From positions 1,616-65,615 of the forward strand of contig CAUHSG010000007.1 of the NCBI GenBank assembly GCA_959608885.1: a stretch of 64,000 nucleotides of DNA. The letters run 5' to 3'. The notes under the pieces were generated by a model, which was given only the letters and a program-made list of their open reading frames with translations, ran no database searches and was not told the DNA's origin. This document shows positions 25,879 through 41,748 of the stretch, piece after piece (within the stretch, counting starts at the first letter, position 1; the number at the start of each line of letters is the position of its first letter). This stretch comes from an uncultured Coriobacteriia bacterium (GTDB taxonomy: Bacteria; Actinomycetota; Coriobacteriia; Coriobacteriales; QAMH01). Position numbers and translations under genes: made by a program.

Positions 25879-27162
25879 TTACGAATCGCCTATCGCGAGT
25901 CCGTACGTGCGGCTTGTCTTCAGGTCAGTGACGATTTCGTTAGCGCGCACGATGAAGCGCGATGCGGTCTGCACCGCCTGCGGTCCGCAAATCTCGACAA
26001 GAAGCTGCGCATTGTTCCAGCAATCGCACAGCTCGCCGAGCTTATCCTGCACGGCCTTGGCGCGCATGTTGGTGCTACCGGCGTTGTCAGGCAGACAATC
26101 CGCAAGCTCGCGCGTCACGTAGCGCAGTGCCTTGGCCTGCTTGCGCACGTCATGCACGGACTCCTGATCGTCATAGTCGACGCGTGCCATCTCCGCCTCA
26201 TATGCCGCACGCATCTCGTTCACACGCTCGACAAGCTCGTCTGGCTCAAGACCGCACTGCCAGACAGACTTGCGCCACGGAAGCTCTTTGACGCGCTTGA
26301 CGATGCGCTTGAGCGAGCGCTGCGTTGCCTCGGAGCCAAATTGCTCGATGAACGCCTCGCGTTCTTCCGAGCACTCCGCGCGAACCATGCCGGCCTCGTC
26401 CGTTTGCGGATCGAGCGCGGCAAGCAACATGTCAAGCTCGCGAATACGCGAAGTGGGGTCCTGGAGCTTCTTGATCGCGCGCATCTCCCTCTTGAGGGCT
26501 CCGCGCTTGCAATGTGGCATGAGAAAGCCGAGTAGCGAACGCGTCACACGCAACGAGATGCGGTATTGATGAAGCGACTCGGGATCATCGGGATTCTCGA
26601 GCAGCTGCGCCGTACAACGCTCGATGCGCTTGACCGCGTCGGAAAGCCCGTCCTCCACGTTGACGAGAGTCTGCCAGTTCTCGGCACACGGGCCCTGCGC
26701 GAACCACTCCAGGCGAGCACCGGCCAGCGTCGCGACACCTCCGGTCTCGAACGCGAAGGCCGCCATCGCGCCTGGCTTCATGGACTGCAGCATGCCACCA
26801 AGCCGTCCGCATAGCTCCTCCATGAACGGATTGTGCCCCACGGCGATGACGCACCCCGTCTCTTCGACGAGTTCGGCCTCGAAGCGCTCGACATCCTGGG
26901 CGTAGAGCGACTCCTTGACCTCGATGCCATCGATGCCAAGCACGCGTGCGATGACCTCGGCCGTCTGCAACGCGCGCAGGGCCGGGCTACTCCAGACCTT
27001 CAGGTCTGCGACAGGGACATCCTCCACCAATCGCAGCGTCACGGGAAAGCGCGCCTCGATGCTGCGGCGACCCGCGCGCGTAAGCTGACGATCCCTATCG
27101 GCGAGCTCGAGAGCGTGTGTCTGCGTCTTGGCATGTCGCACGAGCACCAGCTTGGAAACCAT
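25879..27162 (-). CDS. SixA-type histidine phosphatase fused to CHAD domain
   Basis: N-terminus LVLVRHAKT...AVGHNPFMEE matches the phosphohistidine phosphatase SixA type. The C-terminal ~270 aa are helical and His/Arg-rich, like a CHAD domain (LHQYRISLRVTRSLL, VHDVRKQAKALRY). Confidence 0.7.
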   Translation of the reverse strand: MVSKLVLVRHAKTQTHALELADRDRQLTRAGRRSIEARFPVTLRLVEDVPVADLKVWSSPALRALQTAEVIARVLGIDGIEVKESLYAQDVERFEAELVEETGCVIAVGHNPFMEELCGRLGGMLQSMKPGAMAAFAFETGGVATLAGARLEWFAQGPCAENWQTLVNVEDGLSDAVKRIERCTAQLLENPDDPESLHQYRISLRVTRSLLGFLMPHCKRGALKREMRAIKKLQDPTSRIRELDMLLAALDPQTDEAGMVRAECSEEREAFIEQFGSEATQRSLKRIVKRVKELPWRKSVWQCGLEPDELVERVNEMRAAYEAEMARVDYDDQESVHDVRKQAKALRYVTRELADCLPDNAGSTNMRAKAVQDKLGELCDCWNNAQLLVEICGPQAVQTASRFIVRANEIVTDLKTSRTYGLAIGDS

Positions 27163-27609: not shown

Positions 27610-28839
27610 TTATAGCGTGAACTGCATGCCGTCTTCTGCCACGATGACGCGCCCATCGAACTGCTCGGCGTATCGGTATATCTCGTCGATCTCGTTCACG
27701 TTCGGCTCGCACATGTGCGGGGCGAGATGCGTGAGGTATACGTGGCCTGCATCGAGGATGTCAATGCCCTCGTGCACGGTCTGACGCACGTCATGGTGCG
27801 AACGAGCCGTACCGTGGTTCTCCCAGAAGGTCGAATCCATGACGAGATTGTCCACGCCCCTGAGAATCTCGATGACCTCTGGTTTGAGATCGCTCGTATC
27901 GGGTGCGTAGAAGGTGCGCCGTCCTTGCGGTGTCGTGATGAGATAGCCGAAGGTGCCAGGTGCGTGTCTGAGCGGCAGCGCCTGGATAGTCATTCCATCC
28001 ACCTCGCGTATGTCGTACTCACCCATCACGTCCAGAGCGAAGCAGTCGTCCATGTAGGCGTATTCCTTGAGCGTCTCGGCAATTGCGTAATCGCTCGCGT
28101 GGAAGGGCAGCGTGCCCATGAGATAGAGACGTATGTAGTACTCGAGCTCGCCCAAGCCACCCATGTGGTCGTAATGGGCATGGGTGAGGAAGAAGTCGTT
28201 GATGACGTCGATGCCCTCGCGATTGAGCTGATGGCGTACGTCGGGAGGGGCGTCAACGAGTGTCGTCCCGTGTCCTCGCAGGACGGCACCCGTGCAACCG
28301 CGGCGCTTGGCAGGATCCTTGCGTGCTGCCTCGCAAGCCGGACAATGGCAGAAAAACGCCGGCACGCCGCAACCGGAGCTCGTCCCCAAGAAGGTGAAGG
28401 TACGCTCGATGGGGAGCGAGCGGAACGGCAGCGGCCCGCAGTTGGCCTTGTCGGGACATGCGTCACACTCAGCGCGATACTCGGGAGCGATCGCGTCCCA
28501 ACCGCAGCGCTCGAAGCCGCAAGACAGGTAGAAGGGCTCGATCTCGCCGCGAGCGACCAAGCGCAGATCGGGATGCAGATGCAACGCGTCCTTGAGCAGC
28601 GCTCGTCCCACGCCCTTGCCCTGCACGACGTCGAAGACGACGATGGGGCGCACGTTCCACGAGCCATCGCTACCCTGCTCCAGGCGACAGGCTCCGTACA
28701 TCGTGTTGTCCGGCGTCACGGCGACACGCACGTTCTCGGGACTCTGCAAATCGCTAAAGCCCTCGACCGAAAACAGGTACCGGATGAGGTCCATATCCGC
28801 CTCGACGCAATCGCGGATATGGTATTCGGGTGCGATCAT
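27610..28839 (-). CDS. GNAT N-acetyltransferase fused to PhnP/PqqB-like MBL-fold hydrolase
   Basis: Start ATG 28839 overlaps the flavin reductase stop (ATGA). GNAT motif A is VVQGKGVGRALL. The MBL part has LGTSSGCGVPAFFCHCPAC and THAHYDHMGG. The Arg-rich N-terminal part of ORF 27610-29268 is rejected. Confidence 0.78.
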   Translation of the reverse strand: MIAPEYHIRDCVEADMDLIRYLFSVEGFSDLQSPENVRVAVTPDNTMYGACRLEQGSDGSWNVRPIVVFDVVQGKGVGRALLKDALHLHPDLRLVARGEIEPFYLSCGFERCGWDAIAPEYRAECDACPDKANCGPLPFRSLPIERTFTFLGTSSGCGVPAFFCHCPACEAARKDPAKRRGCTGAVLRGHGTTLVDAPPDVRHQLNREGIDVINDFFLTHAHYDHMGGLGELEYYIRLYLMGTLPFHASDYAIAETLKEYAYMDDCFALDVMGEYDIREVDGMTIQALPLRHAPGTFGYLITTPQGRRTFYAPDTSDLKPEVIEILRGVDNLVMDSTFWENHGTARSHHDVRQTVHEGIDILDAGHVYLTHLAPHMCEPNVNEIDEIYRYAEQFDGRVIVAEDGMQFTL

Positions 28840-29390
28840 GCGCTGAATCCTTTCTCGAAGTGCCCAAAGTGACCGCGCTGCCCCATGAGCAGCGCCGAAC
28901 ATGGCTCGAGCTTGCCGTTGCCATCGAGCTCGCCGCGCGTCTCGGCGACGAGTGTGCGCCCGATGAAGAGTTCGTGATCGCCATGCACTTGCGATTCCAC
29001 CAGCTCGCATTCTATCCACGAGATGGCCTGTCCGATACGGATGGCGTCGATGCGCGTAGCCGGAAGCGTCATGAGCCCCGCTTCGGCGAAGCGATCCTCG
29101 ACACCGTGCTTCTTGCCGCATGTCATCGCAACGCACACGGCATCCTCGTCGGCGCCGAGCACGTTCACGACGAAGCTTCCCGACTCGCGCATGGCACGCG
29201 CGGTCTGCCCGCCGGGACGAATGGCGACGGCGATGAGGCTCGGCTCGTGCGATATGGGCATGGCCCACGCAATGGTCGCGACCTTGTCAGCGCCCATGGC
29301 ATCACGTGCCGTAACAAGTGTCACGGTCGAGGGAATGAGCAACGTGGCGATCTCGTTGCCGGTAAGCTCGCTCAAGCTCTCGTCCATCAT
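28836..29390 (-). CDS. flavin reductase family protein (FMN-binding split barrel)
   Basis: 184 aa with blocks VTLVTARDAMGADKVATIAWAMPISHEPSLIAVAIRP and SGSFVVNVL. SD GGTAGGAG precedes the ATG. Confidence 0.8.
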   Translation of the reverse strand: MMDESLSELTGNEIATLLIPSTVTLVTARDAMGADKVATIAWAMPISHEPSLIAVAIRPGGQTARAMRESGSFVVNVLGADEDAVCVAMTCGKKHGVEDRFAEAGLMTLPATRIDAIRIGQAISWIECELVESQVHGDHELFIGRTLVAETRGELDGNGKLEPCSALLMGQRGHFGHFEKGFSA

Positions 29391-29511: not shown

Positions 29512-30492
29512 CTACATGATGGGCGGCACGTAAATCTTCATGCGGGACTGCGGGATGGCGCGCTTGGCGAGCTCCCGGCAACCCTCGACAATAGTATCGA
29601 GCCGGTTTGCCGGCACGCCCATGTACATCATATCCTCGCCGATATCGCTCGAGGCACGACCACCATAGCAGCCAAACGAGATGTTCGGCTCATCGTTCAT
29701 GAGCGGCAGCAGCGTTGCCTCCACGCATTGCGCATTGAAGCCCGACGCGTGGAAGTCGTGTCGATGCCCGTCGAAGTACGACATGCTCATCGACAGCCAC
29801 ATCATCTGCTCGGGTGTGCCCGTGAAGACGATGACCTCGGGATGGCGCGTGCATGCGCCAAGCGGTTGCACGAGGGTGGCGCGCTTGGAGTTGGGCGGTA
29901 ACGTGGGACGCTCAGCTACCATCTTGGCCGCGGCCTCGGCGTCCACGACCTTATGGAAGAGCACGTAGATCTCGCCGGTGGCAAGCTTGTCGGGCACGCC
30001 AGTCATACCGAAGATTGAGGTGCCATCAGGGCAGGCATGGCAATGCGGCGGCATGAGTATCGATGCACCGCGCCGCGCCGCGTTCATGCTCTGGCAATAG
30101 CGCAACTTCTCGGTGGGCATGGGTACGTCGGGCAGCGGCTCATCGATGTCGATGAGACCGACGGCCACCGGATGCCAGCGCAGGTCGAGCGCTTCCATGA
30201 TGGCCTTCTCCGCCTCGGCGTAATGACACTGCTCCTCGGCGCTGATAGGCTCGGCGCGTTCCTCGCCGGCATACGGGTCGAAGGCCTCGGCGCCGGGCAG
30301 CGACTTGATCACGATGGCGCGCTGCGGGCACTGGCCCGAGCAGGTCGTGCAGCCGACGCACGCCTCCATGTCGACGGCCTTCGGCATGCCGTTACCATTC
30401 ACCTCGAGACAGTACTGCGGGCAGAACGCCACGCATAGGCCGCAGGCAACGCAGCGATCCGCATCGTGTATGAACTCGTAGTCAGCGCTCAT
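29512..30492 (-). CDS. 4Fe-4S ferredoxin domain fused to DUF169 domain protein
   Basis: Ferredoxin motifs CVACGLCVAFCP and CVGCTTCSGQCP at the N-terminus. The remaining ~250 aa resemble DUF169 (COG2043) proteins (RYCQS..., GCYGGR...). Confidence 0.65.
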   Translation of the reverse strand: MSADYEFIHDADRCVACGLCVAFCPQYCLEVNGNGMPKAVDMEACVGCTTCSGQCPQRAIVIKSLPGAEAFDPYAGEERAEPISAEEQCHYAEAEKAIMEALDLRWHPVAVGLIDIDEPLPDVPMPTEKLRYCQSMNAARRGASILMPPHCHACPDGTSIFGMTGVPDKLATGEIYVLFHKVVDAEAAAKMVAERPTLPPNSKRATLVQPLGACTRHPEVIVFTGTPEQMMWLSMSMSYFDGHRHDFHASGFNAQCVEATLLPLMNDEPNISFGCYGGRASSDIGEDMMYMGVPANRLDTIVEGCRELAKRAIPQSRMKIYVPPIM

Positions 30493-30510: not shown

Positions 30511-31818
30511 TTAGGCAGTGGGGCCGGTTCCCCACATCTCGTAGATACGCTCACCGGCGGAATTCGTCATCTGGTAGCTGCAAAACGGAATCACGCGCCC
30601 GTCCTTCATCGCCACCGTCATCGAGCATTCCGCCATGCGCTCGGTCGTTGTCGTCATCGCGTCCATGTAGTTCATGATGATGACGCTGATGCCGCGATAG
30701 AGGTTGACGCCCTTTTTGTAGAGGATGTCGGGCAGCACCGAGCCCTGTGGGGATGTCGGGTCGTAGTACTGCATGTACTCCTCGCTCGACAGGCCGCGCG
30801 TGGCCGGGATATAACCGCCGTTTTCATCCGGCATGAGGAAGGTGCCCGTGTCGCACAGCGGATGCGAGCACCCGAGCGGCATGATGTCTGCGACCTTGAT
30901 GCGCCCATCGGTCTGCTCCTCGAGCGCGTAGATGGTGTCGCCGGCCGTGTACGGCGCGTACTCGCTCGGCTCGAAGCGCCCCGAAGTGAACGCGGGCTGC
31001 AGCGCAACGCCAATCACCACATCGGAGTTCTCCCAGGCAAAGTCGATGACCTCGCCGACGCGATCGTCGTTCACGCCCTTGACGATGGTCATGCACAGCA
31101 CGACCTGAATGCCCACCTCGCGGCAGTTCTCGATGCATGCCATCTTGTCAGCGAGCATCGCGGCCTTGCCGCATATGGCCTCATAGGGCTCCTCGTCAAT
31201 GCCATCGAAAGAGAGGTAGATGCCGGTGATGCCCGCATCGACAAGCTCCTGCAGGTACTTCTTCGAACGACCGATGACGATGCCGTTCGTGTTGATCTCG
31301 ATGCCGGTGAAGCCGTGGCGACGCGCGCACATGACGATCTCGGGCAGGTCGCTGCGCACCGTGGGCTCGCCGCCGGTAATCTGCAATCCCGTTTCGGGGC
31401 CAACCTTCTCGGCGAGCGTGGCGATGAGCCCCTCGATCTCGCCGAAGGTGATGCCATCGCTCGGGAAGTCGGCGCTCATGAAGCACACGGGGCACTTCGC
31501 GTTGCAACGGCGCGTGACCTCGATTTCCACCAAAGTGCCACGGCGTAGATGGCGCTTGCACAACCCGCAACTCTTGGGGCATTCGTCGTCGATGGGATAG
31601 TCGCGGCACTTGGGAGCCGTCGGCGCGACGCGCATCGAACGCAGCCACTCGTAGTGCTCGGCATCTGGCCACACGTAGGTGACGGTCTCGCCGTGCTCGG
31701 GGCACGTGCGCGTCATCCAGACCTTGCCGTCGCCGTCCGCGTAGATATCCGCCTTCAGCTGCGTCAGGCAATGTGGGCACAGCGCATGCGCCGTATGGAG
31801 AGTTCGAATTTTAGTCAT
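30511..31818 (-). CDS. radical SAM protein, COG1964 (MJ0619/Tes-like) type
   Basis: N-terminal Zn-ribbon-like CPHC...CPEHG. Radical SAM motif CNAKCPVC, GGEP block ITGGEPT, long C-terminal extension. Confidence 0.8.
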   Translation of the reverse strand: MTKIRTLHTAHALCPHCLTQLKADIYADGDGKVWMTRTCPEHGETVTYVWPDAEHYEWLRSMRVAPTAPKCRDYPIDDECPKSCGLCKRHLRRGTLVEIEVTRRCNAKCPVCFMSADFPSDGITFGEIEGLIATLAEKVGPETGLQITGGEPTVRSDLPEIVMCARRHGFTGIEINTNGIVIGRSKKYLQELVDAGITGIYLSFDGIDEEPYEAICGKAAMLADKMACIENCREVGIQVVLCMTIVKGVNDDRVGEVIDFAWENSDVVIGVALQPAFTSGRFEPSEYAPYTAGDTIYALEEQTDGRIKVADIMPLGCSHPLCDTGTFLMPDENGGYIPATRGLSSEEYMQYYDPTSPQGSVLPDILYKKGVNLYRGISVIIMNYMDAMTTTTERMAECSMTVAMKDGRVIPFCSYQMTNSAGERIYEMWGTGPTA

Positions 31819-31851
31819 AGGTCACCTTATAAAAGTCCTTTTACCTACGAA

Positions 31852-32033
31852 GGTAGCTCTTTTTTCAAACAATTGCGAAGCAGGAAATGCTTTTCGCGAG
31901 GCGTCCTTGCGAGGACTGTCTGAGCGGGCGGTTTCTGCCCGCGAGTTTCCCTAAAGGGACTAGCTTCGCGTCGCCGCACGCAGCCGAGCGAAAAGCATTG
32001 ACGGGTGCGGAGCCTGTTTGAAAAAGAGCTACC
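31852..32033. mobile_element. MITE-like nonautonomous element with 19-20-bp terminal inverted repeats
   Basis: GGTAGCTCTTTTTTCAAACA (31852-31871) pairs with TGTTTGAAAAAGAGCTACC (32015-32033). The interior is a nest of sub-palindromes with no ORF. A 38-nt internal segment recurs inverted at 15333-15370. Confidence 0.6.
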
Positions 32034-32952
32034 GAAGTATCCCTTCGGTCTCCTCCGGCTCGTGCGCAGGTGCGTCGGCGCCGTCCTCCACGTCATCCAG
32101 ATACTGACGCGGATCGTGGTTCTCGTTGGGCGCGGCATGCGGCTTGAGCCCGAGGAAGTCGGCCCATTGCAGGACGCGCTTGGGCACGTAAATGCCCGTC
32201 TGATACTCCGATGCCGTGCGCAGCGCACGAGCGCACGACAGGCAGTGCGCCAGGTCCTCGACCTCGTCAACATCAGCGACAGGTGCGAGGTACGCGTTGG
32301 GGATGCCCTCCTCGACAAGTTTCTCGACGTATCCGTCGAGCGCGGGCCTGCCGGTCATGTTGTAGTAGATGCCCTGGTGGTTGATAGGCGTGTCGAAGTT
32401 GAAACCCACGAGCGAGGTGCCACACTCCTGGCACGGTGCCTGCACGAAGCCGGGCGTGCCAAGCACCTCAGCGAAGTAGATGAGCCACTGAAATGCCTGG
32501 GTCACATGTGCGCGCGGCAACGTCGGGATATCGGCGCCGATGGAGACGATTGCCTCGTAACCCTGGTCGAAAATCTCCTTAAACGCCATGTCGAAGTGAT
32601 CGTCGAAGGTGGCACCGCGGTCGTGCATGTAGTGAATCTCGCGCGGCCACTGTCCGATTTCCTCGATCGTCTCCTTCATGAGGGCGACATTCTTCTCTGG
32701 CGTCGTCGAGATGAAGAGGTCGTAGCTGCGCTCCGGCGCGCTCGGGTCGGCCTCGCGCTCCTCGCGATTCAGCGCCTCGAGATCGTCCATGCACCACATC
32801 GCAAGCTCGGTCACATCCCACAGGCTACGCTTGAAGAACTGGGCCGCTTGCTCCTGCGTGAAGCCGCCACCACGTTCGATGGTGAGACGCGTCTTGACCA
32901 GACCTGGAATCGGCGGCTTGGAGAAGATGAGAATCGCGTATTTCTTCTGCAT
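32029..32952 (-). CDS. DUF2064 family protein (MobA/CofC-like nucleotidyltransferase fold)
   Basis: Start ATG 32952 (MQKKYAILIFSKPPIPGLVKTRL...) follows AAGGAG and lies 5 nt after the Mo-enzyme stop. The N-terminal block is typical of DUF2064/TIGR04282-type proteins as I recall them. Confidence 0.65.
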   Translation of the reverse strand: MQKKYAILIFSKPPIPGLVKTRLTIERGGGFTQEQAAQFFKRSLWDVTELAMWCMDDLEALNREEREADPSAPERSYDLFISTTPEKNVALMKETIEEIGQWPREIHYMHDRGATFDDHFDMAFKEIFDQGYEAIVSIGADIPTLPRAHVTQAFQWLIYFAEVLGTPGFVQAPCQECGTSLVGFNFDTPINHQGIYYNMTGRPALDGYVEKLVEEGIPNAYLAPVADVDEVEDLAHCLSCARALRTASEYQTGIYVPKRVLQWADFLGLKPHAAPNENHDPRQYLDDVEDGADAPAHEPEETEGILR

Positions 32953-32957
32953 GGGTG

Positions 32958-35177
32958 CTACTCCTTCTTTCTGATGCGGCAGGGAATGCCGTTGTAAATC
33001 CACGTCCCGATAAGCGGCTCGCGCGCGCCTTCGACGGCACCGCGTGTGAGCCAGTTGATGTTCGATTTGAGACACTCGTCAAAATCGGGGCTGTCCTCGA
33101 CCGATTCAGGGTACCACCATCCATATTCGGCGGAGGCCACGTCGTCAAGCATGTTCGCGATATGCACGTATTGGAGCACCTCAACGTCCGGCGCATCCTG
33201 GCGCGAGATGAGGCAGGCATCCCCCTCCGCAAGACCCAGGCGCTCGGCCGTCGCGGGTGAGAGCTCGACCGTCGGCTTGGGATGGCGAGCGCGCATCGAG
33301 GGAACCTCGAAATACGAGGATGCCCAGTATGGCTGCTTGCGCGCGCCGGTAATGAGCGTGACGCAATCATCCTCGTGACACACGTCCTCGTGCACACCGG
33401 TCACGGGCGTGAACTGCGCGACAAGCCCGGCACCGCGGCGCTGCAGGAACGGGACGGCGAGTTCGACCTTGCCGCTCTCGGTCGCAAAACCGCGCGGCTC
33501 GCCTGTTACCTCGTCAATCTCGAGATGCTTGAGGTAACGCGCTCCACCACCGCAGATGCCCGTGATGATGAAATCGTCCCAACTCATGCCCGTCGGCTCG
33601 ATGGTGCGGGCGAGTTCCTCGGTCAGGTCCTGAGCCGGCCACAGCGCCTCATCACAGCCCATGCGCAGAGCCAAATCGCGCAGGATGACATAGTCCTCAC
33701 GGCGCTCGAACTGCGGCTCGACCGCAGCCGGTCCGCCATAGCAGAAGTCCGAGACACCGCCCATCGCCTGAAAGCAGGGGTGCTCGACAGCTGCGGCAGC
33801 GGGCAAAACGTAGTCGGCCATGAGGGCCGTGGGTGTCATGATGAACTCAAGCACGACGACGAGATCCATCGCCTCGAGTGCCCGCATAACAAGCTGCGTA
33901 TCGGCATAGGTGACCAGTGGATTGGCGCCATCGACGATGAGTGCGCTCACGCGATAGGGTTTGTCCGTGATGGCCGCTTCCCACACGCGTTGCGGCAACG
34001 CCGAGGTGAGATATCGCATGGGCAGATGACGTCCCAGCTTGCCGGTGCGCTCGTCGGCGAGTTCCCAACCGGCATAACTCTGGAGGCCGCAATCAGGCTC
34101 GTTGAGGCCATGAGCACGAGCCTCGGCAGACAACAGCATGCTGTCCTCGAGCTCGAGCTCGCTCAGGAAGCTCGGTGCCTCGTTGAGAACGTTACCGCCG
34201 GGCACGTCGACATTGCCCGTGATGGCGCGCAACGCGGCGATGACACGATGCAGCGATGCGGTGTTGGGGCCGATCTGGTCGACACCGCGTCCCGAAAGCA
34301 GACCGGCGGGCTTGCTCGTCGCGTACATGCGGGCAGCCTCGCGAATCTGCTCGACGGACACTTGGGTGATAGCGGCCGCCTCGTCGAGCGTGCGCTCGAA
34401 AGCAGCGGCCTTGAACTCGTCGAAGCCGGAGCACCACTCATCGACGAAGTCATGGTCGTAGAGATCCTCCTCGATGATGACGCGCGCGAGCGCGTACGCG
34501 AGAACGAGATCAGTACCGGGAAAGGGCGCGAGCCACAGCGTCGCCTTGGCCGCCGTCATCGACAGGCGCGTGTCCACGACGATGAGCTTACCGCCATCGC
34601 GAGCGTAGTCGGCGATGTTGCGCCAGAACAGCGAGTTGTCCGACTCAGCCGGATTGATACCCCAGAGCATCAGGCACTCCGTGAGGTCGGGCCGGAAGTC
34701 GCATTCGACCGACCAACCGTAGGTCATCGTGTCCATCCAGATGCGCGGATTCCAGCAGATGGGACCGATGCCCATGTTGTTGGGGCTGCCGATGAAGCTC
34801 ATGAAGCGATGCAACGGCCAGTAAACCGCATGCGGACCACCAATGGCACTCGCCACCGTCCACGGACCATGTGCGTCGATGAGCAGGCGCAAACGCGTCG
34901 CGATATCGTCAAGCGCCTCGTCCCAGCTCACGCGGATAAAACCGCCGCCGCCACGCGGCCCTATGCGCTTCAGGGGAAAGTTGACGCGCGTATCCTCGTC
35001 ATAGAGCTTCTCGAGATTGAGCCGCCAACGGGGACAGCGGGCAGATACGCTCACATCGTAGGGATAGCGCGTCGCATCAGGCGTGAAGTCGATTACGCGG
35101 CCGTCTTCGATCGTCGCGTCGAACGCGCATAGATAGCCGCAGTAGTGACAATTGGTTTTACGAATCTCGGTAGTCAT
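32958..35177 (-). CDS. molybdopterin (bis-MGD) oxidoreductase, cytoplasmic, unknown substrate
   Basis: FS0 motif NCHYCGYLC...C near the N-terminus. DMSO-reductase-family blocks are present (VSWDEALDDIA, GINPAESD, LVVVLEFIMTPTALMADYVLP). No Tat/Sec signal. Start is uncertain: ATG 35177 (MTTEIRK) or 35201. Confidence 0.85.
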   Translation of the reverse strand: MTTEIRKTNCHYCGYLCAFDATIEDGRVIDFTPDATRYPYDVSVSARCPRWRLNLEKLYDEDTRVNFPLKRIGPRGGGGFIRVSWDEALDDIATRLRLLIDAHGPWTVASAIGGPHAVYWPLHRFMSFIGSPNNMGIGPICWNPRIWMDTMTYGWSVECDFRPDLTECLMLWGINPAESDNSLFWRNIADYARDGGKLIVVDTRLSMTAAKATLWLAPFPGTDLVLAYALARVIIEEDLYDHDFVDEWCSGFDEFKAAAFERTLDEAAAITQVSVEQIREAARMYATSKPAGLLSGRGVDQIGPNTASLHRVIAALRAITGNVDVPGGNVLNEAPSFLSELELEDSMLLSAEARAHGLNEPDCGLQSYAGWELADERTGKLGRHLPMRYLTSALPQRVWEAAITDKPYRVSALIVDGANPLVTYADTQLVMRALEAMDLVVVLEFIMTPTALMADYVLPAAAAVEHPCFQAMGGVSDFCYGGPAAVEPQFERREDYVILRDLALRMGCDEALWPAQDLTEELARTIEPTGMSWDDFIITGICGGGARYLKHLEIDEVTGEPRGFATESGKVELAVPFLQRRGAGLVAQFTPVTGVHEDVCHEDDCVTLITGARKQPYWASSYFEVPSMRARHPKPTVELSPATAERLGLAEGDACLISRQDAPDVEVLQYVHIANMLDDVASAEYGWWYPESVEDSPDFDECLKSNINWLTRGAVEGAREPLIGTWIYNGIPCRIRKKE

Positions 35178-35281
35178 AGCCCATGATTGTACTGCATGCA
35201 TCGGGCAAACACGCGCACTCTCCGGTTACAACACGGCACCGGCAAACAAAGTGGTTACCCGCCATGAGACAGTTGCCGTCA

Positions 35282-35328
35282 GACGGGATGAGACAAAAGT
35301 GACCGGAGCGTTTTTGTCTCATCCCGTC
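35282..35328. repeat. ATGAGACA-family stem-loop
   Basis: 17-bp stem GACGGGATGAGACAAAA / TTTTGTCTCATCCCGTC with a loop similar to that of 54905-54943. An extra ATGAGACA lies at 35264-35271. It sits 10 nt downstream of the HdrD-like stop. Confidence 0.85.
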
Positions 35329-35337
35329 CCATCGCCA

Positions 35338-36492
35338 TCAGTCGACGAGCGTCAACTCCTCACTCTCCGAAAGCTCCGCATATGCCGGGTCGGCAAAGAG
35401 CGCATCGACGTTCGCGTACACCTGCCCCCAATCGACGGAGCAATCAAAGATTTGCTCGAGGTAATGCTGCACAGGCGTGCTTCCCACACCACGCTGCAAC
35501 GAGTTGACACACGAGAAACAGGTCGACAGCACGCGGTCCGCATCGACTCCGTCGATTTCGGCAAGACGCAGGTTGCGGCGATACGCACAATAATCGGGAG
35601 CGTACACGCTCACCATGCCGCCACCTCCGCAACACAGACAGTCACGTTTCTCGTGCGGCATGCTCTTGAATGTCGCGTTCTCAAATAAACTGCGTGCCGC
35701 ACTGCCAAAGAAACCAGCAGAGCGGTCGTAACACGCATCGTGAAATGTGATGGCCTCGGTGCTCTGCGATATCATGCCGCGCTCGACGAGCAAATCGGGT
35801 AGCCGTACGATCTCGATCTCCATCCCCTCGATGAGCTGTGGCAGCAGATGGCCGCAGTGTGGACAGGTCACGACCAGGCGCCCGATTTCCTTCTCACGCA
35901 AAAAGGCCTGCACGCGCTCGCGATAGGCATCGTATTCGGCATAGAAGCCGACATCATAGAAAGTCGCGCCGCAACAGATGAGCAGCGTGTAGGCGGCAAT
36001 GTCCTCATCACGCAACCATTGCGAAACCTTGGCGGTAAGTTCGGGCGCATATGCATATAGCGCACAACCCGGGAAAAATGCGGTGTGATCGGCATCGCCA
36101 CCCAGATTCGCCTCGCCCTGGATATAGGTGACGTTCGTGATGTCACCGGTGTCACGGGCGCGCAGCGACGAAAACACGTTGTGCTTGAGATCCGTCCTGA
36201 ACTTGCGGTACAGGGGCCTCAGCTCGGGCTTCTTCTCGAGCAGCAATGCCCTGAGCGGTTTGGTAGCACGAGAGGCGACCAGGTCGACCGGGCAGTTAAT
36301 CGTACAGCGATTGCACAGCGCGCACGTGAAGGGTGCGTAATCCCAGGTATCGTCCCCGTTGAGAATCGACTCGCACAGCTCACCGAGATTAGGCTCGCCA
36401 TTCGAGAAGTTACCGCAGTCGGTCTGGGCGCACAGGCCGCAACGGATGCAGCTGTCGGAAAAGTCCTGCACGTCTTCCAGCGGATGATGCAT
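35338..36492 (-). CDS. HdrD/GlpC-like iron-sulfur protein (2x 4Fe-4S ferredoxin + 2x CCG domains)
   Basis: Ferredoxin motifs CIRCGLCAQTDC and CALCNRCTINCP. Two CCG-type patterns: PGC...LICCG...CPHCG and DAC...CLCCGGGG...CFSC. Confidence 0.8.
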   Translation of the reverse strand: MHHPLEDVQDFSDSCIRCGLCAQTDCGNFSNGEPNLGELCESILNGDDTWDYAPFTCALCNRCTINCPVDLVASRATKPLRALLLEKKPELRPLYRKFRTDLKHNVFSSLRARDTGDITNVTYIQGEANLGGDADHTAFFPGCALYAYAPELTAKVSQWLRDEDIAAYTLLICCGATFYDVGFYAEYDAYRERVQAFLREKEIGRLVVTCPHCGHLLPQLIEGMEIEIVRLPDLLVERGMISQSTEAITFHDACYDRSAGFFGSAARSLFENATFKSMPHEKRDCLCCGGGGMVSVYAPDYCAYRRNLRLAEIDGVDADRVLSTCFSCVNSLQRGVGSTPVQHYLEQIFDCSVDWGQVYANVDALFADPAYAELSESEELTLVD

Positions 36493-36520
36493 GTCGAATC
36501 CTCTCTCGCGTCACATCTGC

Positions 36521-36581
36521 GCCCGATTATACGCCAATGTGACAGGGGTCTGACCCCTGTCACATTGGCGTATAATCGGGC
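36521..36581. promoter_or_regulatory. 61-bp perfect palindrome carrying TATAAT, 29 nt upstream of the HdrD-like gene
   Basis: 30-nt arms GCCCGATTATACGCCAATGTGACAGGGGTC / GACCCCTGTCACATTGGCGTATAATCGGGC around T36551. A third CCCCTGTCACA copy lies at 36581-36591. Confidence 0.6.
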
Positions 36582-36648
36582 CCCTGTCACACGCGACCGC
36601 AAATCCATATGCAAGTGCCATCCGAAGAGCTCGCCTGCACGTAAACTG

Positions 36649-36812: not shown

Positions 36813-36904
36813 TGATTTTCTTGCATGAGAGAGGCTCAGCGTGCGCATAGGCGCAAGTATCGCGAGTCTACACGCGGGGACAAGGCCTCTTGTGCTGCAT
36901 CAGC

Positions 36905-36944: not shown

Positions 36945-36985
36945 GAGAAACCTTGCGGCTCATTCACGCCAGACGGCATTCGCTC

Positions 36986-38077
36986 CTACTGAGCGCCGGT
37001 CATGGCAGGATTGGGGCCGGAGGTCTGGTAGACCTCGTCCGGACCGTCGGCAGGAGCCTCGTCGGCAACCTCACCAGCGGGCGTAACCCACGTCCAGTAC
37101 TCCCTGCCGGTCTCCCAGTAGTCCATGAAGTCCTGATGACTCTGAGGCAGACGCGTGTAGTACTTGAGCTCGCCCGGGGTGACGCGGCGCTGATAGCTCC
37201 AGATAATCATGAAGCGCAGCAGGCAGCCACCCATGAGAGCGATGAGCGCGGATGCGTAGCCGCCCACGTTGGTGACGTTGAGCAGCAGCGGAATAACCAG
37301 ACCGCAGCAGACCATCAGGCCCCAGAAGTAGCCGGCCCACTCGCCACGAACCCAGCGCTCGGCATGGGCCTTGGCGGTCTCGTTGGAAGCGCAGAACTGC
37401 AGCATCACGTAGAGCAGCAGCACGACGAGCTCGAGCGAGATGAGAATCGCGTCAGCGACATGCAAGATGTGACGCAGCTCCTCGGTGAGCAGCGCGGCAA
37501 GCGGCGTAGACAGGTTGACCTGCAGCCACTCGGCCGGGAAGGGCCAAACGCCGATGCACATGGAGAGCAGGGCCGCACCGGTGGAGCAGCCGGACACCAT
37601 GAAGAGCACGGGCAGAACCGGCGTGTTCCAGAACGGACGGGACTTCATGCTGGAGAGCAGTACGCCCGTGTAGATCGTGACGCACAGGCCGAAGATACCG
37701 GCAATGCCGAGCAGCACCTGCGCAAAGCCCTCATACGGAATGAAGGGCAGACCGGTGAGCCAGGAGAGCTCCCAGAAGATGAAGAGCACGCCTGCGATCA
37801 TCGAGATGGAGAGGAACACAGCACCCCACTTGATAACCGAGGTCCTCGTCACGAAGGCACGGTAGAAAATCCACGGCTGACCAAGCTCGAAGACGAGCAG
37901 GCCGGTGCCAATGCCCAGGATGAGGAAGGCGATGAAGACGCCCCACACGAGGGCACCGCTCGTCAGAGCGGATGGCGCGATGATCAATCCGACAACGGCG
38001 GCGGTCGCCATCATGCCGCCACCAAGGCCGCCCAGGAAGAGGTAGAGGGCAATCGGCCAAATCCAGAACTGCTTCAC
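36986..38077 (-). CDS. NrfD/PsrC-like polytopic membrane anchor subunit
   Basis: 363 aa. N-terminal WIWPIALYLFLGGLGGG is typical of the NrfD family, with 8 or more hydrophobic helices. A polar ~70-aa C-terminal tail is present. The start overlaps the FeS subunit stop (38074-38077). Confidence 0.82.
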   Translation of the reverse strand: MKQFWIWPIALYLFLGGLGGGMMATAAVVGLIIAPSALTSGALVWGVFIAFLILGIGTGLLVFELGQPWIFYRAFVTRTSVIKWGAVFLSISMIAGVLFIFWELSWLTGLPFIPYEGFAQVLLGIAGIFGLCVTIYTGVLLSSMKSRPFWNTPVLPVLFMVSGCSTGAALLSMCIGVWPFPAEWLQVNLSTPLAALLTEELRHILHVADAILISLELVVLLLYVMLQFCASNETAKAHAERWVRGEWAGYFWGLMVCCGLVIPLLLNVTNVGGYASALIALMGGCLLRFMIIWSYQRRVTPGELKYYTRLPQSHQDFMDYWETGREYWTWVTPAGEVADEAPADGPDEVYQTSGPNPAMTGAQ

Positions 38078-38637
38078 TGTACCGTACCTCCTAAGTCGGG
38101 AATGTAGTAGATCATGGGCTCGGTACCAACCTCAGGATAGACCTGCTCGGTGTAGTACGAGTTGACGAGCTTCGAGACCTCGCTGTTGGGATCGTCAAGG
38201 TCGCCGAAGGTACGGGCCTTCTGATGGCACGTCATGACGCAGAAGGGCTGCTCGCCCTCGCGGACGCGATCCTTGCAGAAGGTGCACTTGCGGATGTAGC
38301 CCTCATGCTCGTTCATGTCGCGAGCGCCATAGGGGCAGGCATTCGCGCAGACCTTGCAGCCCATGCACTGGGAAGGCTCAACCCACACGATGCCGTCGTC
38401 GTCCTGACGCGAGGCGCCAGTCGGGCAAGCGGGCACGCAGGCGGGCTTGTCGCAATGCATGCAGATGAGCGGTTGGAAGGTCATGTGGACATGAGGCCAC
38501 ACGCCCTCTGCTCCGTTGGAAACAACAGGATTGTAGATGATGTCAATGGGCAGCTCGTTCCAGGTGCGGCATGCGATGGTGCATGAGGAGCAACCAATGC
38601 AACGACGCTGATCCATAACCATTGCGTAACGGGTCAT
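38074..38637 (-). CDS. 4Fe-4S dicluster subunit (DmsB/PsrB-like)
   Basis: 187 aa with CIGCSSCTIAC, CMHCDKPACVPAC, CMGCKVCANAC and CTFC motifs. No signal peptide. Confidence 0.88.
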   Translation of the reverse strand: MTRYAMVMDQRRCIGCSSCTIACRTWNELPIDIIYNPVVSNGAEGVWPHVHMTFQPLICMHCDKPACVPACPTGASRQDDDGIVWVEPSQCMGCKVCANACPYGARDMNEHEGYIRKCTFCKDRVREGEQPFCVMTCHQKARTFGDLDDPNSEVSKLVNSYYTEQVYPEVGTEPMIYYIPDLGGTVQ

Positions 38638-38653: not shown

Positions 38654-41527
38654 TTATTTGTTCAAGTCAGCCAGGCTGCAGGGGGCATCAACAGGTTGCA
38701 TGGAGAAGTCGTACCATGCGTTGTTCGCCTCGTCGACCAGGTAGTTGCCCTGACCATACTGGACGAAGCGATAGCCCGTGCCTGCCTGATAGTGGATGGA
38801 GGTGGTCGGATCGATCATCCAGCCACTGCCAGTGTCGTAATAGCGACCCTTGTCATCCTCGGCCTTGAGCGTGATGGGATTCCACGTCGTGCCGGCAGGC
38901 AGCTCGAAGTCGGCCTGCGGGCCCTCGGAAGGCTGCATCGAGAAGTCGTAGAACGTGCCCGTGGCCTCGTCGAGCAGGAAGTCGCCGTTGTGGGAGACGT
39001 ACCTGTAGCCCGTGCCCATCTGGTAGAAGGTGCCCGTGGCGTCGTCGACCATCCAGCCGGAGGCCTGGTCGTAGCGGCGGCCGTTCTCGTCGTAGCACGC
39101 GCGCTTGCGGTAATCCCAGGTGAGACCCTCGGGAACCTCGAAGTCGGGTTGCGCGAAGACGGGCTCGGCAAACTCGAGAGCCATCTTCTGGGTGCTCGGC
39201 ATGGCATGCACGCCGGGGCCCTCGGTGGCAAACGCAGAGCCGGGGATGGAGAACTCGCAGTCGCGCTCGGTGAATTGGTAGTCGATGTCGGTGCACTTGT
39301 ACACCTTGCACATCAGGCCACGGTTCGCCCAGCAACCGGTCAGCGGGTCGCAGTGCTCGTCATCGACGGACGTGAGCACGTTGGTGTTGGACTCGAGGCA
39401 ACCGAAGGGCTCGGGGCCTTCGGGGCTACGCTCGGGGAACCACCAGCCGCGCTGCGTGTAGACCGCGCGCGGATCGATGCCCGGCTCGACGTTGGCGCGC
39501 ATCTTGATGCGGCCGCGACGGGTCTCGATCCAGCACCAATCGCCCATCTCGATGCCCAGCGTGACAGCGAGGTCGGGGTGGATGGTGAAGTACGGATCGG
39601 GCTTGATGTAGCGGATGATCGGGTTGTTGAAGTGCTCCGAGTGATGGAACGGCATGAAACCGCCGCCCGTGGTGAGCACGATGGGGTACTCGGCTGCGAC
39701 CTCGGGATCGTCGACCTCGTTCTCGGCCGGACCGATGTACTTCGGGAAGGCCGGCAGACCGAACTCCTCGAAGACCGAGCACTTGAGCTCGACCTTGCCC
39801 GACGCGGTGCAGAACTGGCCCTTCTGCAGGTACTTCTGGTACTGCAGCGGCGGATAGTACATGCGGAAGCGAGCGACGAAGTCGTTGTAGTCCGTGATGG
39901 GAAGACCAAGCGGCGAGAGAACGTGGAAGTACGCGTCCTCGAGCTCCGGCCAGGGCCAGTCCTCTTCGGTCTGACCGCAGGCAAGGCCCAGGTCCTTCCA
40001 GATGTTGTAGTCGGTCTTGCGCTCGTACATCGGCCAAATGGCGCGCTCGGAGCAGACGATGGAGTCGGTGACACCGTAGTTGGTGTGAACCATCGGTCGC
40101 TCCATGGCACCGGCAACCGGCAGCACGAAGTCGGCCATGAGGGCCGTCGGGGTCATGAAGTACTCGAGGACGACCAGGAACTCGACCTGCTTGCAGGCCT
40201 CGAAGACCATCTTCGCGTCGCCGTAGGACGAAAGCGGATTGGAGCCGCTGACGAACAGCGCGCGAACCTGATACGGATCGCCCGTGAGAATGGCCTTGAA
40301 GACGGACGGGCCATGGGCCTCGCACATCCACTCGGCGGTGAACGCCTTGCCCCACTTGTCCTTGGAGATCTGGGAGAGACGCTCGTAGCCGGGCCAGGAG
40401 GTCATCTTGTACTTGTCGGAGCCGATCTGCTTGGCACGCATCTCGACGGGCAGACGGTCGTTGGCCTCGAGCTCCTCGTCAGTGACGTAAGCCGCGGGAC
40501 CGGGCATGCCGTCGCCGCCGGGGCAGTCGAGGTTGCCGCAGATGGCACGCAGGATCGAACGGGCGTGCATGCCGGCACCAGCCGTGCGGCCGAGCTGATC
40601 CCAGGTGCAACCCCACTGGATGTTGCCGGGGCGGTTGGTCGCGTACATGCGAGCCGCCTGGCGGATGAGCTCGGGATCGAGCCAGGTGAGGGGCGCAGCC
40701 CACTCCGGGGTGTAGGGCTCGATGTAATCGCGGAGCTCGTCGAAGCCCTCGCACCACTCGTCAACAAAGTCCATGTCATAGATGAACTCGTTCATGATGA
40801 CGTTGATCATGGCCATGGACAGAGCCGTATCCGAACCCGGACGCAGCGGCAGCCAGAGGTCGGCGTGCGCGGCGGTCTCGGAGTAGCGCGGATCGACGAC
40901 GATGAGCTTCAGGCCGTTTGCGCGCTGCAGGTCGGTGTAGCCGTGCATGCCGGGCATGGACGACGCACCGGGGTTGAAGCCCCACAGGATGACGCACTTG
41001 GATGCGCCAAGGTCGGTCTCGAACGGGGACCAACCGTTGATGGCGGTCTCGACCATGAAGGTCGGAATCCAGCACAGCAGGGCGTTGTGGAAGCCGTTGG
41101 GCGTTCCGAACAGGTTGAGGAAGCGACGCCTCGCCCAGTCATCGGTACGCAGGGTACCGGCGGCTGCGGCGACTGCCTCTGCACCGGACTCTTCCTTGAT
41201 CTGGTTGATCTTGGCGGCAATCTCGGTCAGGGCCTGATCCCAGGAGACACGCTCCCACTTGTTCTCGCCCTTCTCGCCCGCGCGCTTCATCGGGTAGTTG
41301 ATGCGCGACGGATTGTCCACGAACGTGTAGGCCTGGTTACCACGAGTGCACAGGCCACCAGCGTTGGTGGGATGATCCGGATCGCCTTCGGCGTAGATGA
41401 GCTTACCGTCCTTGACGTAAGCCAGAACGCCGCAGTTCTGATGGCAGAAATAGCAGCATGACTTCTTGACCTCCACGCCTTCTGCGTGGATTTCATCCAA
41501 CCATTTCGTCGATGAATAGTCTCTCAC
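38654..41527 (-). CDS. molybdopterin oxidoreductase catalytic subunit with C-terminal tandem repeat
   Basis: FS0 motif CCYFCHQNCG...C. DMSO-reductase-family blocks are present (VSWDQALTEIA, GFNPGASS, VVLEYFMTPTALMADFVLP). Start placed at GTG 41527, which follows GAAGGAGGAGG; the ORF-track GTG 41557 has no SD. No Tat signal with either start. Confidence 0.85.
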   Translation of the reverse strand: MRDYSSTKWLDEIHAEGVEVKKSCCYFCHQNCGVLAYVKDGKLIYAEGDPDHPTNAGGLCTRGNQAYTFVDNPSRINYPMKRAGEKGENKWERVSWDQALTEIAAKINQIKEESGAEAVAAAAGTLRTDDWARRRFLNLFGTPNGFHNALLCWIPTFMVETAINGWSPFETDLGASKCVILWGFNPGASSMPGMHGYTDLQRANGLKLIVVDPRYSETAAHADLWLPLRPGSDTALSMAMINVIMNEFIYDMDFVDEWCEGFDELRDYIEPYTPEWAAPLTWLDPELIRQAARMYATNRPGNIQWGCTWDQLGRTAGAGMHARSILRAICGNLDCPGGDGMPGPAAYVTDEELEANDRLPVEMRAKQIGSDKYKMTSWPGYERLSQISKDKWGKAFTAEWMCEAHGPSVFKAILTGDPYQVRALFVSGSNPLSSYGDAKMVFEACKQVEFLVVLEYFMTPTALMADFVLPVAGAMERPMVHTNYGVTDSIVCSERAIWPMYERKTDYNIWKDLGLACGQTEEDWPWPELEDAYFHVLSPLGLPITDYNDFVARFRMYYPPLQYQKYLQKGQFCTASGKVELKCSVFEEFGLPAFPKYIGPAENEVDDPEVAAEYPIVLTTGGGFMPFHHSEHFNNPIIRYIKPDPYFTIHPDLAVTLGIEMGDWCWIETRRGRIKMRANVEPGIDPRAVYTQRGWWFPERSPEGPEPFGCLESNTNVLTSVDDEHCDPLTGCWANRGLMCKVYKCTDIDYQFTERDCEFSIPGSAFATEGPGVHAMPSTQKMALEFAEPVFAQPDFEVPEGLTWDYRKRACYDENGRRYDQASGWMVDDATGTFYQMGTGYRYVSHNGDFLLDEATGTFYDFSMQPSEGPQADFELPAGTTWNPITLKAEDDKGRYYDTGSGWMIDPTTSIHYQAGTGYRFVQYGQGNYLVDEANNAWYDFSMQPVDAPCSLADLNK

Positions 41528-41748
41528 TCTGCCTCCTCCTTCATTCTCTCTTGCCACATGTTTGCATTACCTGCTTTCCGCAGACCATGCAGTCATGCGG
41601 AACACCTCCTGCGAAGACGTTGCCATCCTCGCACGTCAACGCTGTCTGCCGGCATATTCGCGCCCATCCGATGAGTGGGCATGGCAATGTCGACGTCTAA
41701 CGTCTAACTTCCGTATTAAATCACGGGATGAAGGTTATGTGAAGCTAT

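Follow-up and report, generated by a model that had tools for sequence, protein, structure and literature searches.

Drugs, neurotransmitters, steroids and dietary polyphenols are all transformed by Eggerthellaceae and related Coriobacteriia of the gut, which possess large arsenals of molybdoenzymes for this purpose. The catechol dehydroxylases of the Coriobacteriia have been described as being either exported by the twin-arginine translocation (Tat) pathway and membrane-bound or soluble and devoid of a signal peptide, with partner genes other than those reported here (PMC7028382). These enzymes were reported to be nearest to acetylene hydratase, the Gordonibacter type being without a signal peptide (PMC7028382; PMC12771579), and to require cluster-specific accessory genes and to be inactive in Escherichia coli (PMC11887054). 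We analysed a stretch of 64,000 nucleotides from an uncultured Coriobacteriia bacterium (GenBank assembly GCA_959608885.1, contig CAUHSG010000007.1, positions 1,616 to 65,615), hereafter called the window, which contains a gene cluster built around a signal-less bis-pyranopterin enzyme of molybdenum or tungsten (MoAH), an iron-sulfur protein of the CCG type and a DUF2064 protein. The core of this cluster is undescribed, is specific to the Coriobacteriia and is conserved within them. What is new is the set of partners of an enzyme system of the dimethyl sulfoxide (DMSO) reductase family, the enzyme family itself being known.

A first-pass annotation of this DNA, made from the sequence alone, had proposed that a signal-less molybdopterin oxidoreductase, an HdrD-like CCG protein and a DUF2064 protein form a cytoplasmic redox module for which no characterised counterpart exists. 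Translation and Pfam searches showed that the genes and sequence features that it had flagged are present, and our literature search likewise found no described system with these parts: it found no paper on DUF2064 and none describing the gene combination of the cluster, nor any joining DUF169, radical SAM and molybdopterin, or Eggerthellaceae, molybdopterin and radical SAM. The selection of signal-peptide-bearing, substrate-induced enzymes by a broad published survey of gut reductases may explain why the cluster went unremarked. The genes listed in the annotation were correct, while a flavin reductase-like gene (28836-29390) and a trio of genes upstream (36986-41557) had been overlooked. A radical SAM gene and a phosphoesterase gene had been named as neighbours and both are there, the latter (27610-28839) being in fact an acetyltransferase fused to a phosphodiesterase of the metallo-beta-lactamase fold (MBL). 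All coordinates given here are positions in the 64-kb window, and every gene of the cluster is on the minus strand:

38654..41557, minus strand: MoOCRE, a second bis-pyranopterin enzyme of molybdenum or tungsten, 967 amino acids (aa); Pfam Molybdop_Fe4S4, Molybdopterin, Molydop_binding and OCRE
38074..38637, minus strand: four-cluster ferredoxin subunit of the upstream trio, 187 aa; Pfam Fer4_11, E 1.5e-24
36986..38077, minus strand: integral membrane subunit of the NrfD/PsrC type, a predicted quinol-interacting anchor, 363 aa; Pfam NrfD, E 2e-27
35338..36492, minus strand: CCG protein, HdrD-like, 384 aa; two ferredoxin-type Cys motifs and two CCG domains
32958..35177, minus strand: MoAH, signal-less bis-pyranopterin enzyme of molybdenum or tungsten, 739 aa; Pfam, and best PDB match acetylene hydratase
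32029..32952, minus strand: DUF2064 protein with a nucleotidyltransferase fold, 307 aa; PF09837, 51 bits
30511..31818, minus strand: radical SAM enzyme of COG1964, tetraether-synthase-like, 435 aa; Pfam Zn_ribbon_HMPTM and Radical_SAM
29512..30492, minus strand: Fer4-DUF169, a 2x[4Fe-4S] ferredoxin fused to DUF169, 326 aa; Pfam DUF169 (E 4e-51) and Fer4
28836..29390, minus strand: flavin reductase-like protein, 184 aa; Pfam Flavin_Reduct, 103 bits
27610..28839, minus strand: GNAT acetyltransferase fused to a PhnP-like MBL phosphodiesterase, 409 aa; Pfam and NCBIfam
25879..27162, minus strand: histidine phosphatase and CHAD protein, 427 aa; Pfam

The last of these genes is confined to close relatives, namely the clade of the window, and its membership of the cluster is therefore doubtful.

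One genome per species was scanned with an alignment of the DUF2064 protein; 139 genomes matched and the best 80 were inspected. The best 80 of the 139 were all Coriobacteriia, a few of the records carrying obviously mis-binned labels, and they included Adlercreutzia, Ellagibacter, Parvibacter and Enterorhabdus as well as an uncultured human-gut clade at 97-99% identity that contains the window. Homologues of MoAH, DUF2064 and the radical SAM enzyme with 50-99% identity were found in Gordonibacter, Paraeggerthella, Raoultibacter and uncultured Coriobacteriales, and no Eggerthella record was seen among the best 80 of the 139 genome matches or among the named protein matches. At 90% identity, the proteins of the window fall in clusters that have about 340-740 members each and draw on NCBI, ENA and Logan assemblies.

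The results of our tblastn searches with the window proteins against all loci showed that the genes follow the order MoOCRE, ferredoxin, NrfD, CCG, MoAH, DUF2064, radical SAM, Fer4-DUF169 and GNAT in nearly all of the 80 species-representative loci, and also in metagenome loci. This order was retained across at least 64 species in which the proteins are only about 50% identical. When species representatives alone were counted, and only those whose contig reaches the expected position, MoAH was present in 64/64 and the radical SAM gene in 68/68, while CCG was found in 54/57, NrfD in 52/55, the four-cluster ferredoxin in 52/54, MoOCRE, upstream, in 45/47, Fer4-DUF169 in 57/63 and GNAT in 50/59. 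A flavin-reductase homologue stands beside the cluster in 59 loci. The co-occurrence across genomes that the first-pass annotation had put forward as a check on its module was thus borne out for the Mo enzyme, CCG, DUF2064, the radical SAM enzyme and DUF169 across the Coriobacteriia, and the module exceeds the one put forward there in both size and conservation. Two loci of a subclade related to the window (L016 and L026) carry the genes from CCG through GNAT-MBL and do not have the MoOCRE trio upstream, which shows that the trio is separable from the core.

Three loci depart further from the common arrangement. One of them (L085) lacks a CCG gene and has DUF2064, the orthologue of MoAH and the genes for the radical SAM enzyme, DUF169 and GNAT; in another (L086) a four-gene cassette adjoins MobB and the sole Mo enzyme nearby is a divergent paralogue; and the locus of a termite-gut relative (L147) contains a LuxR regulator, DUF2064, another enzyme of the acetylene hydratase (AH) type and a ferredoxin, as well as the orthologue of MoOCRE, which is accompanied by its own ferredoxin and NrfD. 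DUF2064 always accompanies Mo enzymes of the AH type and usually also the radical SAM, DUF169 and GNAT genes, and since it keeps company with AH-type enzymes even in these three exceptions, we consider it to be the hub of the cluster. Fusions of MoAH with DUF2064 were found in four loci (L001, L059, L137 and L141) and also in two protein clusters that include members of 1055-1103 aa, these coming from separate assemblies. The repeated occurrence of these fusions argues that the two proteins are a physical and functional unit. GNAT and MBL are fused throughout the clade of the window; in Eggerthellaceae they are separate genes, GNAT following DUF169 and MBL lying divergently upstream of MoOCRE.

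The N-terminus of MoAH is MTTEIRKTNCHYCGYLC, in which only nine residues precede the first FS0 cysteine, so that an export signal of the Tat or Sec type would not fit; the N-termini of the orthologues support 35177 over 35201 as the start. MoAH has both the Molybdopterin (PF00384, E 1e-36) and the Molydop_binding (PF01568, E 1e-7) domains of Pfam, a four-Cys FS0 motif and a candidate protein ligand of the metal, and is on these features a predicted member of the DMSO reductase superfamily. Comparison with the PDB showed that its best match is acetylene hydratase (2e7z, 258 bits), the score against PsrA, a polysulfide/thiosulfate reductase, being 163 bits; MoAH is 30% identical to acetylene hydratase and about 33-36% identical to MoOCRE. 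The FS0 motif, the candidate metal-ligand Cys and the lack of a signal had already been noticed in the first-pass annotation, and all of them withstood alignment and comparison with 109 orthologues. Among these, Cys10, Cys13, Cys17 and Cys48 of FS0 are conserved at 97-99%, while the Cys of GPICWNPRIW (Cys141), which aligns with the tungsten ligand Cys141 of acetylene hydratase, is conserved at 100% and sits within the invariant block SPNNMGIGxICWNPRxWMD. The catalytic Asp13 of acetylene hydratase, beside the second FS0 Cys (CQSCD), is replaced by a glycine in MoAH (CHYCG) and by a histidine in MoOCRE (CYFCH), and MoAH is therefore no acetylene hydratase. We assign MoAH to an orthologous group of its own, with these neighbours, inside the acetylene-hydratase-related branch. 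It looks catalytically competent, as the FS0 cysteines and the metal-ligand Cys are retained.

The ATG of DUF2064 lies 5 nt after the TAG of MoAH, as previously annotated, with a GGAG within the end of the MoAH gene, and the distance from the MoAH stop to the DUF2064 start is 5 nt or less in more than 50 loci; DUF2064 is predicted to be translationally coupled to MoAH. Its family assignment is supported by the hidden Markov model of Pfam (PF09837, 51.2 bits for a gathering threshold of 25.8). The motifs FSKPPxPGxVKTRLT, GxDIP and ADxDxxxDL are invariant, and at the C-terminus the subfamily has about 100 additional residues that are conserved and include a PCQEC motif. An AlphaFold (AF2) model was obtained with a pLDDT of 78 and a pTM of 0.80. 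The Foldseek search with this model returned first a DUF2064 structure (3cgx, E 6e-13), then the FbiD/CofC guanylyltransferases and then cytidylyltransferases, with a MobA-like protein appearing first at rank 43, while hhalign comparison of the DUF2064 profile with E. coli MobA gave no similarity (probability 0.1%). The protein therefore models as a CofC/FbiD-like nucleotidyltransferase of the GT-A fold; of the MobA/CofC-like fold initially named for this family, the CofC part stands and the MobA part does not. Given the retained motifs and this fold, DUF2064 appears to be catalytically competent.

The long DUF2064 subfamily is narrow. Among 1.84 billion representative proteins, 51 relatives were found at E<=1e-30, many of them fragments, and the ordinary DUF2064 proteins of about 230 aa came next, around E 1e-12. 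Distant relatives are on short contigs or in unrelated housekeeping contexts. Against the NCBIfam model TIGR04282 (arsenosugar-associated transferase), DUF2064 scored 60.8 bits for a cutoff of 134, and the neighbourhood typical of that model, namely a TIGR04167 radical SAM enzyme and a TIGR04283 GT2, is absent: the radical SAM enzyme of the cluster is COG1964/Tes-like and the cluster has no GT2. A second, more distant DUF2064 paralogue of 283 aa is encoded in the metagenome-assembled genome GCA_024408695.1 (Coriobacteriales; L166, 9317-10168, from the same genome as L032), among the housekeeping genes prfA, prmC, an xerC-like gene and recJ; MobB and two genes for GT2 glycosyltransferases lie no further than 8 kb away.

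The CCG protein contains two ferredoxin-type Cys motifs, CIRCGLCAQTDC and CALCNRCTINCP, and two Pfam CCG domains above threshold (PF02754, E 5e-15) with visible CXnCCGXmCXXC motifs. Both pairs had been noted in the first-pass annotation and both were seen again, the ferredoxin-domain matches being under the Pfam gathering score (Fer4, 17.9 vs 21.1 bits). Comparison with NCBIfam gave diclust_near_Sec and TfrB as the top matches, both far below their cutoffs, and the protein was above no curated equivalog cutoff for HdrD, DsrK, HmcF, TmcB or TfrB (best scores 84 vs 530 bits and 78 vs 385 bits). In Eggerthellaceae the orthologues are HdrB-like, with about 327 aa and without a ferredoxin domain, so the HdrD-type architecture first proposed is valid for the clade of the window and not for that family; in some genera a second HdrD-like protein of 451 aa is located after GNAT. 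No NarI-type gene that could encode an HdrE/DsrM cytochrome b partner is present in the cluster. The proposal that a membrane partner is missing consequently holds for the HdrE/DsrM type and fails overall, since the trio with its NrfD subunit lies upstream.

Comparison of the radical SAM enzyme with the PDB showed that it is closest to the tetraether lipid synthase GDGT-MAS (7tol, E 8e-77, 262 bits, residues 12-321), the match to MoaA being at 1e-16 and 63 bits; for its last 114 residues there is no alignment with the C-terminal part of Tes. The scores of the enzyme against the NCBIfam models TrsS (334 bits, cutoff 490) and Tes (315 bits, cutoff 450) are both below cutoff. The CxxxCxxC motif and a PF04055 match (E 8e-26) place it in the radical SAM superfamily. 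The cysteines of the Zn-ribbon, of the auxiliary cluster and of the radical SAM motif are invariant, as is CNAKCPVC, and with all cluster cysteines kept the enzyme looks catalytically competent. Fer4-DUF169 has eight ferredoxin Cys and four invariant Cys in its DUF169 domain, for which the sequence search found no solved relative and the single-sequence AlphaFold model had a pLDDT of 31. The MBL half of the GNAT-MBL protein is closest to phosphodiesterases of the PhnP type (NCBIfam).

MoOCRE is much closer than MoAH to acetylene hydratase (404 vs 258 bits), which is its best PDB match (2e7z, E 2e-119, 33% identity) and with which its core aligns end to end. Its Cys35, Cys38, Cys42 and Cys70 of FS0 and its Cys162 do not vary among 63 orthologues. 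A twin-arginine signal is missing from its N-terminus, and MoAH, MoOCRE and the ferredoxin are all devoid of an export signal. The C-terminal ~170 aa of MoOCRE (38654-39200) comprise two repeats of about 85 aa each, rich in Tyr, Gly and Trp, that match the eukaryotic OCRE domain (31 bits); these repeats are kept in the orthologues of Eggerthellaceae and are missing from that of the termite-gut relative. Directly upstream of MoOCRE, in the clade of the window only, is a gene (41857-42681) for an Fe-S cluster carrier ATPase of the Mrp/ApbC type, whose top NCBIfam match is MrpORP (298 bits, cutoff 450).

The domain identities, conserved catalytic-type residues, absence of signal peptides, synteny and fusions described above lead us to a model that we hold tentatively, giving it somewhat less than an even chance, but which is the best that we have: a cytoplasmic CCG-MoAH-DUF2064 complex requiring a small molecule that the co-inherited enzymes would make. 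CCG, of the HdrB/HdrD type, MoAH, with its Cys-ligated Mo or W and its place in the acetylene-hydratase/catechol-dehydroxylase branch, and DUF2064 would be one cytoplasmic enzyme, with DUF2064 docked at, or fused to, the C-terminus of MoAH. DUF2064 would use a nucleoside triphosphate to nucleotidylate a phosphorylated small molecule, which would be the dedicated co-substrate or cofactor of the enzyme and would be built, tailored or recycled by the Tes-like radical SAM enzyme, the ferredoxin-DUF169 protein, the flavin reductase, GNAT and the PhnP-like phosphodiesterase. At its metal, MoAH would perform a two-electron reaction in which a hydroxyl or oxo group is removed or added. The electron route would be from Mo to FS0 and then to the CCG clusters, and these would exchange electrons with a thiol/disulfide couple or with the quinone pool, while the MoOCRE-ferredoxin-NrfD trio would link related chemistry to menaquinol in most genomes. 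The catechol dehydroxylases of the Coriobacteriia, with their requirement for accessory genes of their own clusters and their inactivity in E. coli, are a precedent (PMC11887054).

Several points weigh against this model. Every function in it has been assigned from homology and genomic context, and it is from these that we infer the formation of a complex, the route of the electrons, the transfer of a nucleotidyl group and what substrate and product are. Conservation within the cluster is lowest for CCG, at about 27% identity between clades, and neither a substrate nor a transporter or regulator is co-conserved with the cluster. In the termite-gut relative there is no radical SAM, DUF169 or GNAT gene within reach, and DUF2064 therefore need not share a pathway with them. 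In the window, terminator-like hairpins, one of them 3' of the NrfD gene (36914-36932), and inserted repeats stand between NrfD and CCG and between DUF2064 and the radical SAM gene, so that the cluster there is not one simple operon; these spacers are kept in close relatives only. A fusion of CCG with MoAH was found on one singleton contig only and was given little weight as evidence, a frameshift artefact being possible because the two genes overlap by 4 nt in Gordonibacter.

The alternative that survives best is a private maturation of the cofactor, in which DUF2064, the radical SAM enzyme, Fer4-DUF169, GNAT and MBL would tailor or insert the pyranopterin, or modify the protein post-translationally, for the AH-type Mo enzymes of the locus, DUF2064 adding a nucleotide to pterin phosphate at the apoenzyme. 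It would account for the fact that, wherever the locus is rearranged (L147, L085 and L086), DUF2064 remains beside Mo enzymes of the AH type, as enzyme-specific chaperones do, and that the operon of L147 retains it though the radical SAM, DUF169 and GNAT genes are missing. To our knowledge, pterin phosphate is the only phosphorylated ligand that enzymes containing bis-molybdopterin guanine dinucleotide (bis-MGD) bind. Radical SAM maturases of metalloenzymes are a known theme, a weak NCBIfam match to the tungsten-enzyme maturase TIGR04317 was seen, MobB adjoins the cassette in L086, and catechol dehydroxylases are active only in Coriobacteriia hosts and with their accessory genes (PMC11887054). 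However, the possibility that DUF2064 is a MobA was rejected, since the profile comparison was negative and, among about 165 loci, MobB adjoins the cassette in one only and MobA in none, and the structural neighbours of DUF2064 are CofC/FbiD and the cytidylyltransferases rather than MobA. The radical SAM enzyme is far nearer to an enzyme of lipid C-C coupling than to MoaA, and because its closest relative is the tetraether lipid synthase and not a pterin methylase, the modified pterin that the first-pass annotation had offered as one possibility is weakened as well; the interpretation given there is, as a whole, partly supported. Many other Mo enzymes in these genomes do without such genes, and a permanent fusion of a maturation factor with its client would be unusual. 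On balance we regard this alternative as unlikely, though well worth keeping in view.

We are also doubtful, and somewhat more so, that DUF2064, the Tes-like radical SAM enzyme, Fer4-DUF169, GNAT, MBL and the flavin reductase make a prosthetic group or redox cofactor of a new kind. This could be a tailored pyranopterin dinucleotide for both AH-like enzymes, with MoAH acting as a NifEN-like assembly scaffold for MoOCRE; it could also be a new low-molecular-weight thiol or a quinone-like carrier cycled by CCG-MoAH.

There is little chance, in our estimation, that MoAH is an ordinary soluble enzyme of the catechol- or phenol-dehydroxylase type, acting on a dietary or host aromatic, with neighbours that are unrelated or generic helpers. 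Catechol dehydroxylases are the enzymes reported closest to acetylene hydratase, those of Gordonibacter being signal-less (PMC7028382; PMC12771579), acetylene hydratase is the best solved relative of MoAH, and dozens of such paralogues occur in these genomes. Unrelated neighbours are contradicted by the synteny, which is kept in at least 64 species at about 50% identity, and by the recurrent DUF2064 fusions; the companions of the Gordonibacter type (a small Fe-S subunit, an MFS transporter and a LuxR regulator) are not conserved here, and the cluster of the window stands among housekeeping genes without a regulator.

A role in organometalloid (As or Se) or organo-heteroatom metabolism, in which an organo-element compound linked to ribose or a nucleoside would be made or processed by the radical SAM enzyme and DUF2064, in the way suggested for arsenosugars, and the oxidised form of that compound would be reduced by MoAH-CCG with thiols, is very improbable: the nearest curated DUF2064 model is named 'arsenosugar biosynthesis glycosyltransferase' by NCBI and its family likewise partners a radical SAM enzyme, the top NCBIfam matches are TrsS (a selenoprotein family) for the radical SAM enzyme and diclust_near_Sec for CCG, and GNAT and the PhnP-like MBL recall PhnO and PhnP of the C-P lyase pathways, but all family matches are far under their cutoffs, the cluster has no ars, sel or phn genes and no methyltransferase, and the likeness is only between generic superfamilies.

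In the window, the cluster is embedded among housekeeping genes (rpoD, dnaG, ribF and infB). Large regulators of the MalT/LuxR type flank it in Gordonibacter (L002, 16376-19141) and in the termite-gut relative (L147, 2076-4925) and are absent in the window. A permissive Rfam scan of 25000-43500 gave only tRNAs and spurious hairpin matches, and riboswitch control was rejected. A near-perfect palindrome (36506-36596) with 45-nt arms, 84% complementary and separated by 1 nt, lies directly upstream of the CCG start codon, its Rfam matches being spurious miRNA-hairpin ones only. The motif CCTAGGAAAACG forms two arrays, at 36649-36812 (5 copies) and at 60915-61037 (4 copies), in both orientations and with a spacing of ~41 bp, the nine matches comparing with 0.14 expected. 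The second array rules out the first, upstream of the CCG gene, as a cluster-specific operator, and the motif is therefore a dispersed intergenic repeat. The spacer of 210 nt that separates DUF2064 from the radical SAM gene (31819-32028) gave a long closed multibranch fold (-95.5 kcal/mol, z = -4.6). It was rejected as a conserved structured element, as its conservation ends at the closest relatives, in which the first 55 nt alone are kept, and a 38-nt piece of it is found again at 15333-15370 of the window; the spacer is probably a repeat that was inserted.

Four tRNA genes (42864-43347) lie between the Mrp-like gene and rpoD and a lone tRNA (25672-25745) lies downstream of the histidine-phosphatase/CHAD gene, so that tRNA sites bracket the region of the cluster. 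Elsewhere in the window, within 9613-13107, is a gene for an 891-aa Mo enzyme that lacks an FS0 domain and that, among solved structures, is closest to the large subunit of pyrogallol hydroxytransferase (297 bits); the gene adjoins one for a protein with Fer4_11 and CarboxypepD_reg domains, like the small subunit of that enzyme, and an MFS transporter is encoded nearby (4980-6473), which is the layout reported for the soluble dehydroxylases of the Gordonibacter type. The genes for a TerB_N/TerB_C protein (554 aa) and then a DEAD/Helicase_C protein (785 aa) at 13976-19358, and for an AAA_14/DUF4143 ATPase at 19869-21218, may form a defence or mobile island.

The cluster is unlike the reductases covered by the published survey in being signal-less, conserved across genera and abundant in gut assemblies, with protein clusters of several hundred members. 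If the CCG-MoAH-DUF2064 model is true, it would give the DMSO reductase superfamily a new set of partners and would provide a first functional context for the long DUF2064 subfamily, for DUF169 and for the bacterial Tes-like radical SAM enzymes, all three of them orphan families, and it might help to explain the failure to obtain active Coriobacteriia molybdoenzymes in E. coli. Genetic tools are already available, as is an expression host, Gordonibacter urolithinfaciens, which itself carries the cluster, and this makes the question directly testable.

Acetylene hydratase of Pelobacter acetylenicus (2e7z) is thus the best solved relative of both MoAH and MoOCRE and shares with them a cytoplasmic location, an N-terminal [4Fe-4S] cluster FS0 and a Cys ligand of the metal at the aligned position, while it differs in being a stand-alone, non-redox enzyme that has no CCG, NrfD or DUF2064 partners. 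The catechol dehydroxylases (Dadh, Cadh and Hcdh, and the Cldh and Dodh types of Gordonibacter) share with MoAH their organisms and the acetylene-hydratase-related branch, and the Gordonibacter type is, like MoAH, signal-less and cytoplasmic. The companions of the Dadh type are a Tat signal and Fe-S and anchor subunits, whereas MoAH has neither signal nor anchor and MoOCRE has the Fe-S and NrfD subunits and lacks the twin-arginine signal. The small Fe-S subunit, MFS transporter and LuxR regulator mark the Gordonibacter type, and the accessory genes of catechol dehydroxylases are helicase-like and TorD-like genes and ferredoxins, none being reported with CCG, DUF2064, a COG1964 radical SAM enzyme or DUF169; it is by these published descriptions that the cluster is set apart from the characterised catechol dehydroxylases.

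The upstream trio matches the layout of PsrABC and the complex iron-sulfur molybdoenzymes, with a catalytic Mo subunit, a four-cluster ferredoxin and an NrfD anchor, and differs from it in that the catalytic subunit is acetylene-hydratase-like, has an OCRE-like tail and is without a twin-arginine signal, the last of which implies an enzyme facing the cytoplasm. The two CCG domains of the CCG protein are shared with HdrD, HdrB and TfrB, to which an HdrC-like two-cluster domain is added in the clade of the window. By analogy with TfrB, which feeds TfrA, the CCG protein would be placed to feed the FS0 of the Mo enzyme; its partner is a molybdoenzyme, unlike the flavoprotein or HdrA partner of known CCG proteins, and it has no cytochrome b of the HdrE/DsrM type. 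DUF2064 has the KTRL, DxP and DxD motifs and the GT-A fold in common with DUF2064/TIGR04282 proteins and with the CofC/FbiD guanylyltransferases, and unlike all of these it is linked or fused to a molybdoenzyme; the TIGR04282 family also partners a radical SAM enzyme, but one of a different family than that of the cluster. Finally, Tes/GDGT-MAS (MJ0619, 7tol) and TrsS share the Zn-ribbon or rubredoxin-like motif, the auxiliary-cluster motif and the radical SAM core with the radical SAM enzyme of the cluster, which differs from Tes in standing in the context of a molybdoenzyme and not of lipid synthesis.

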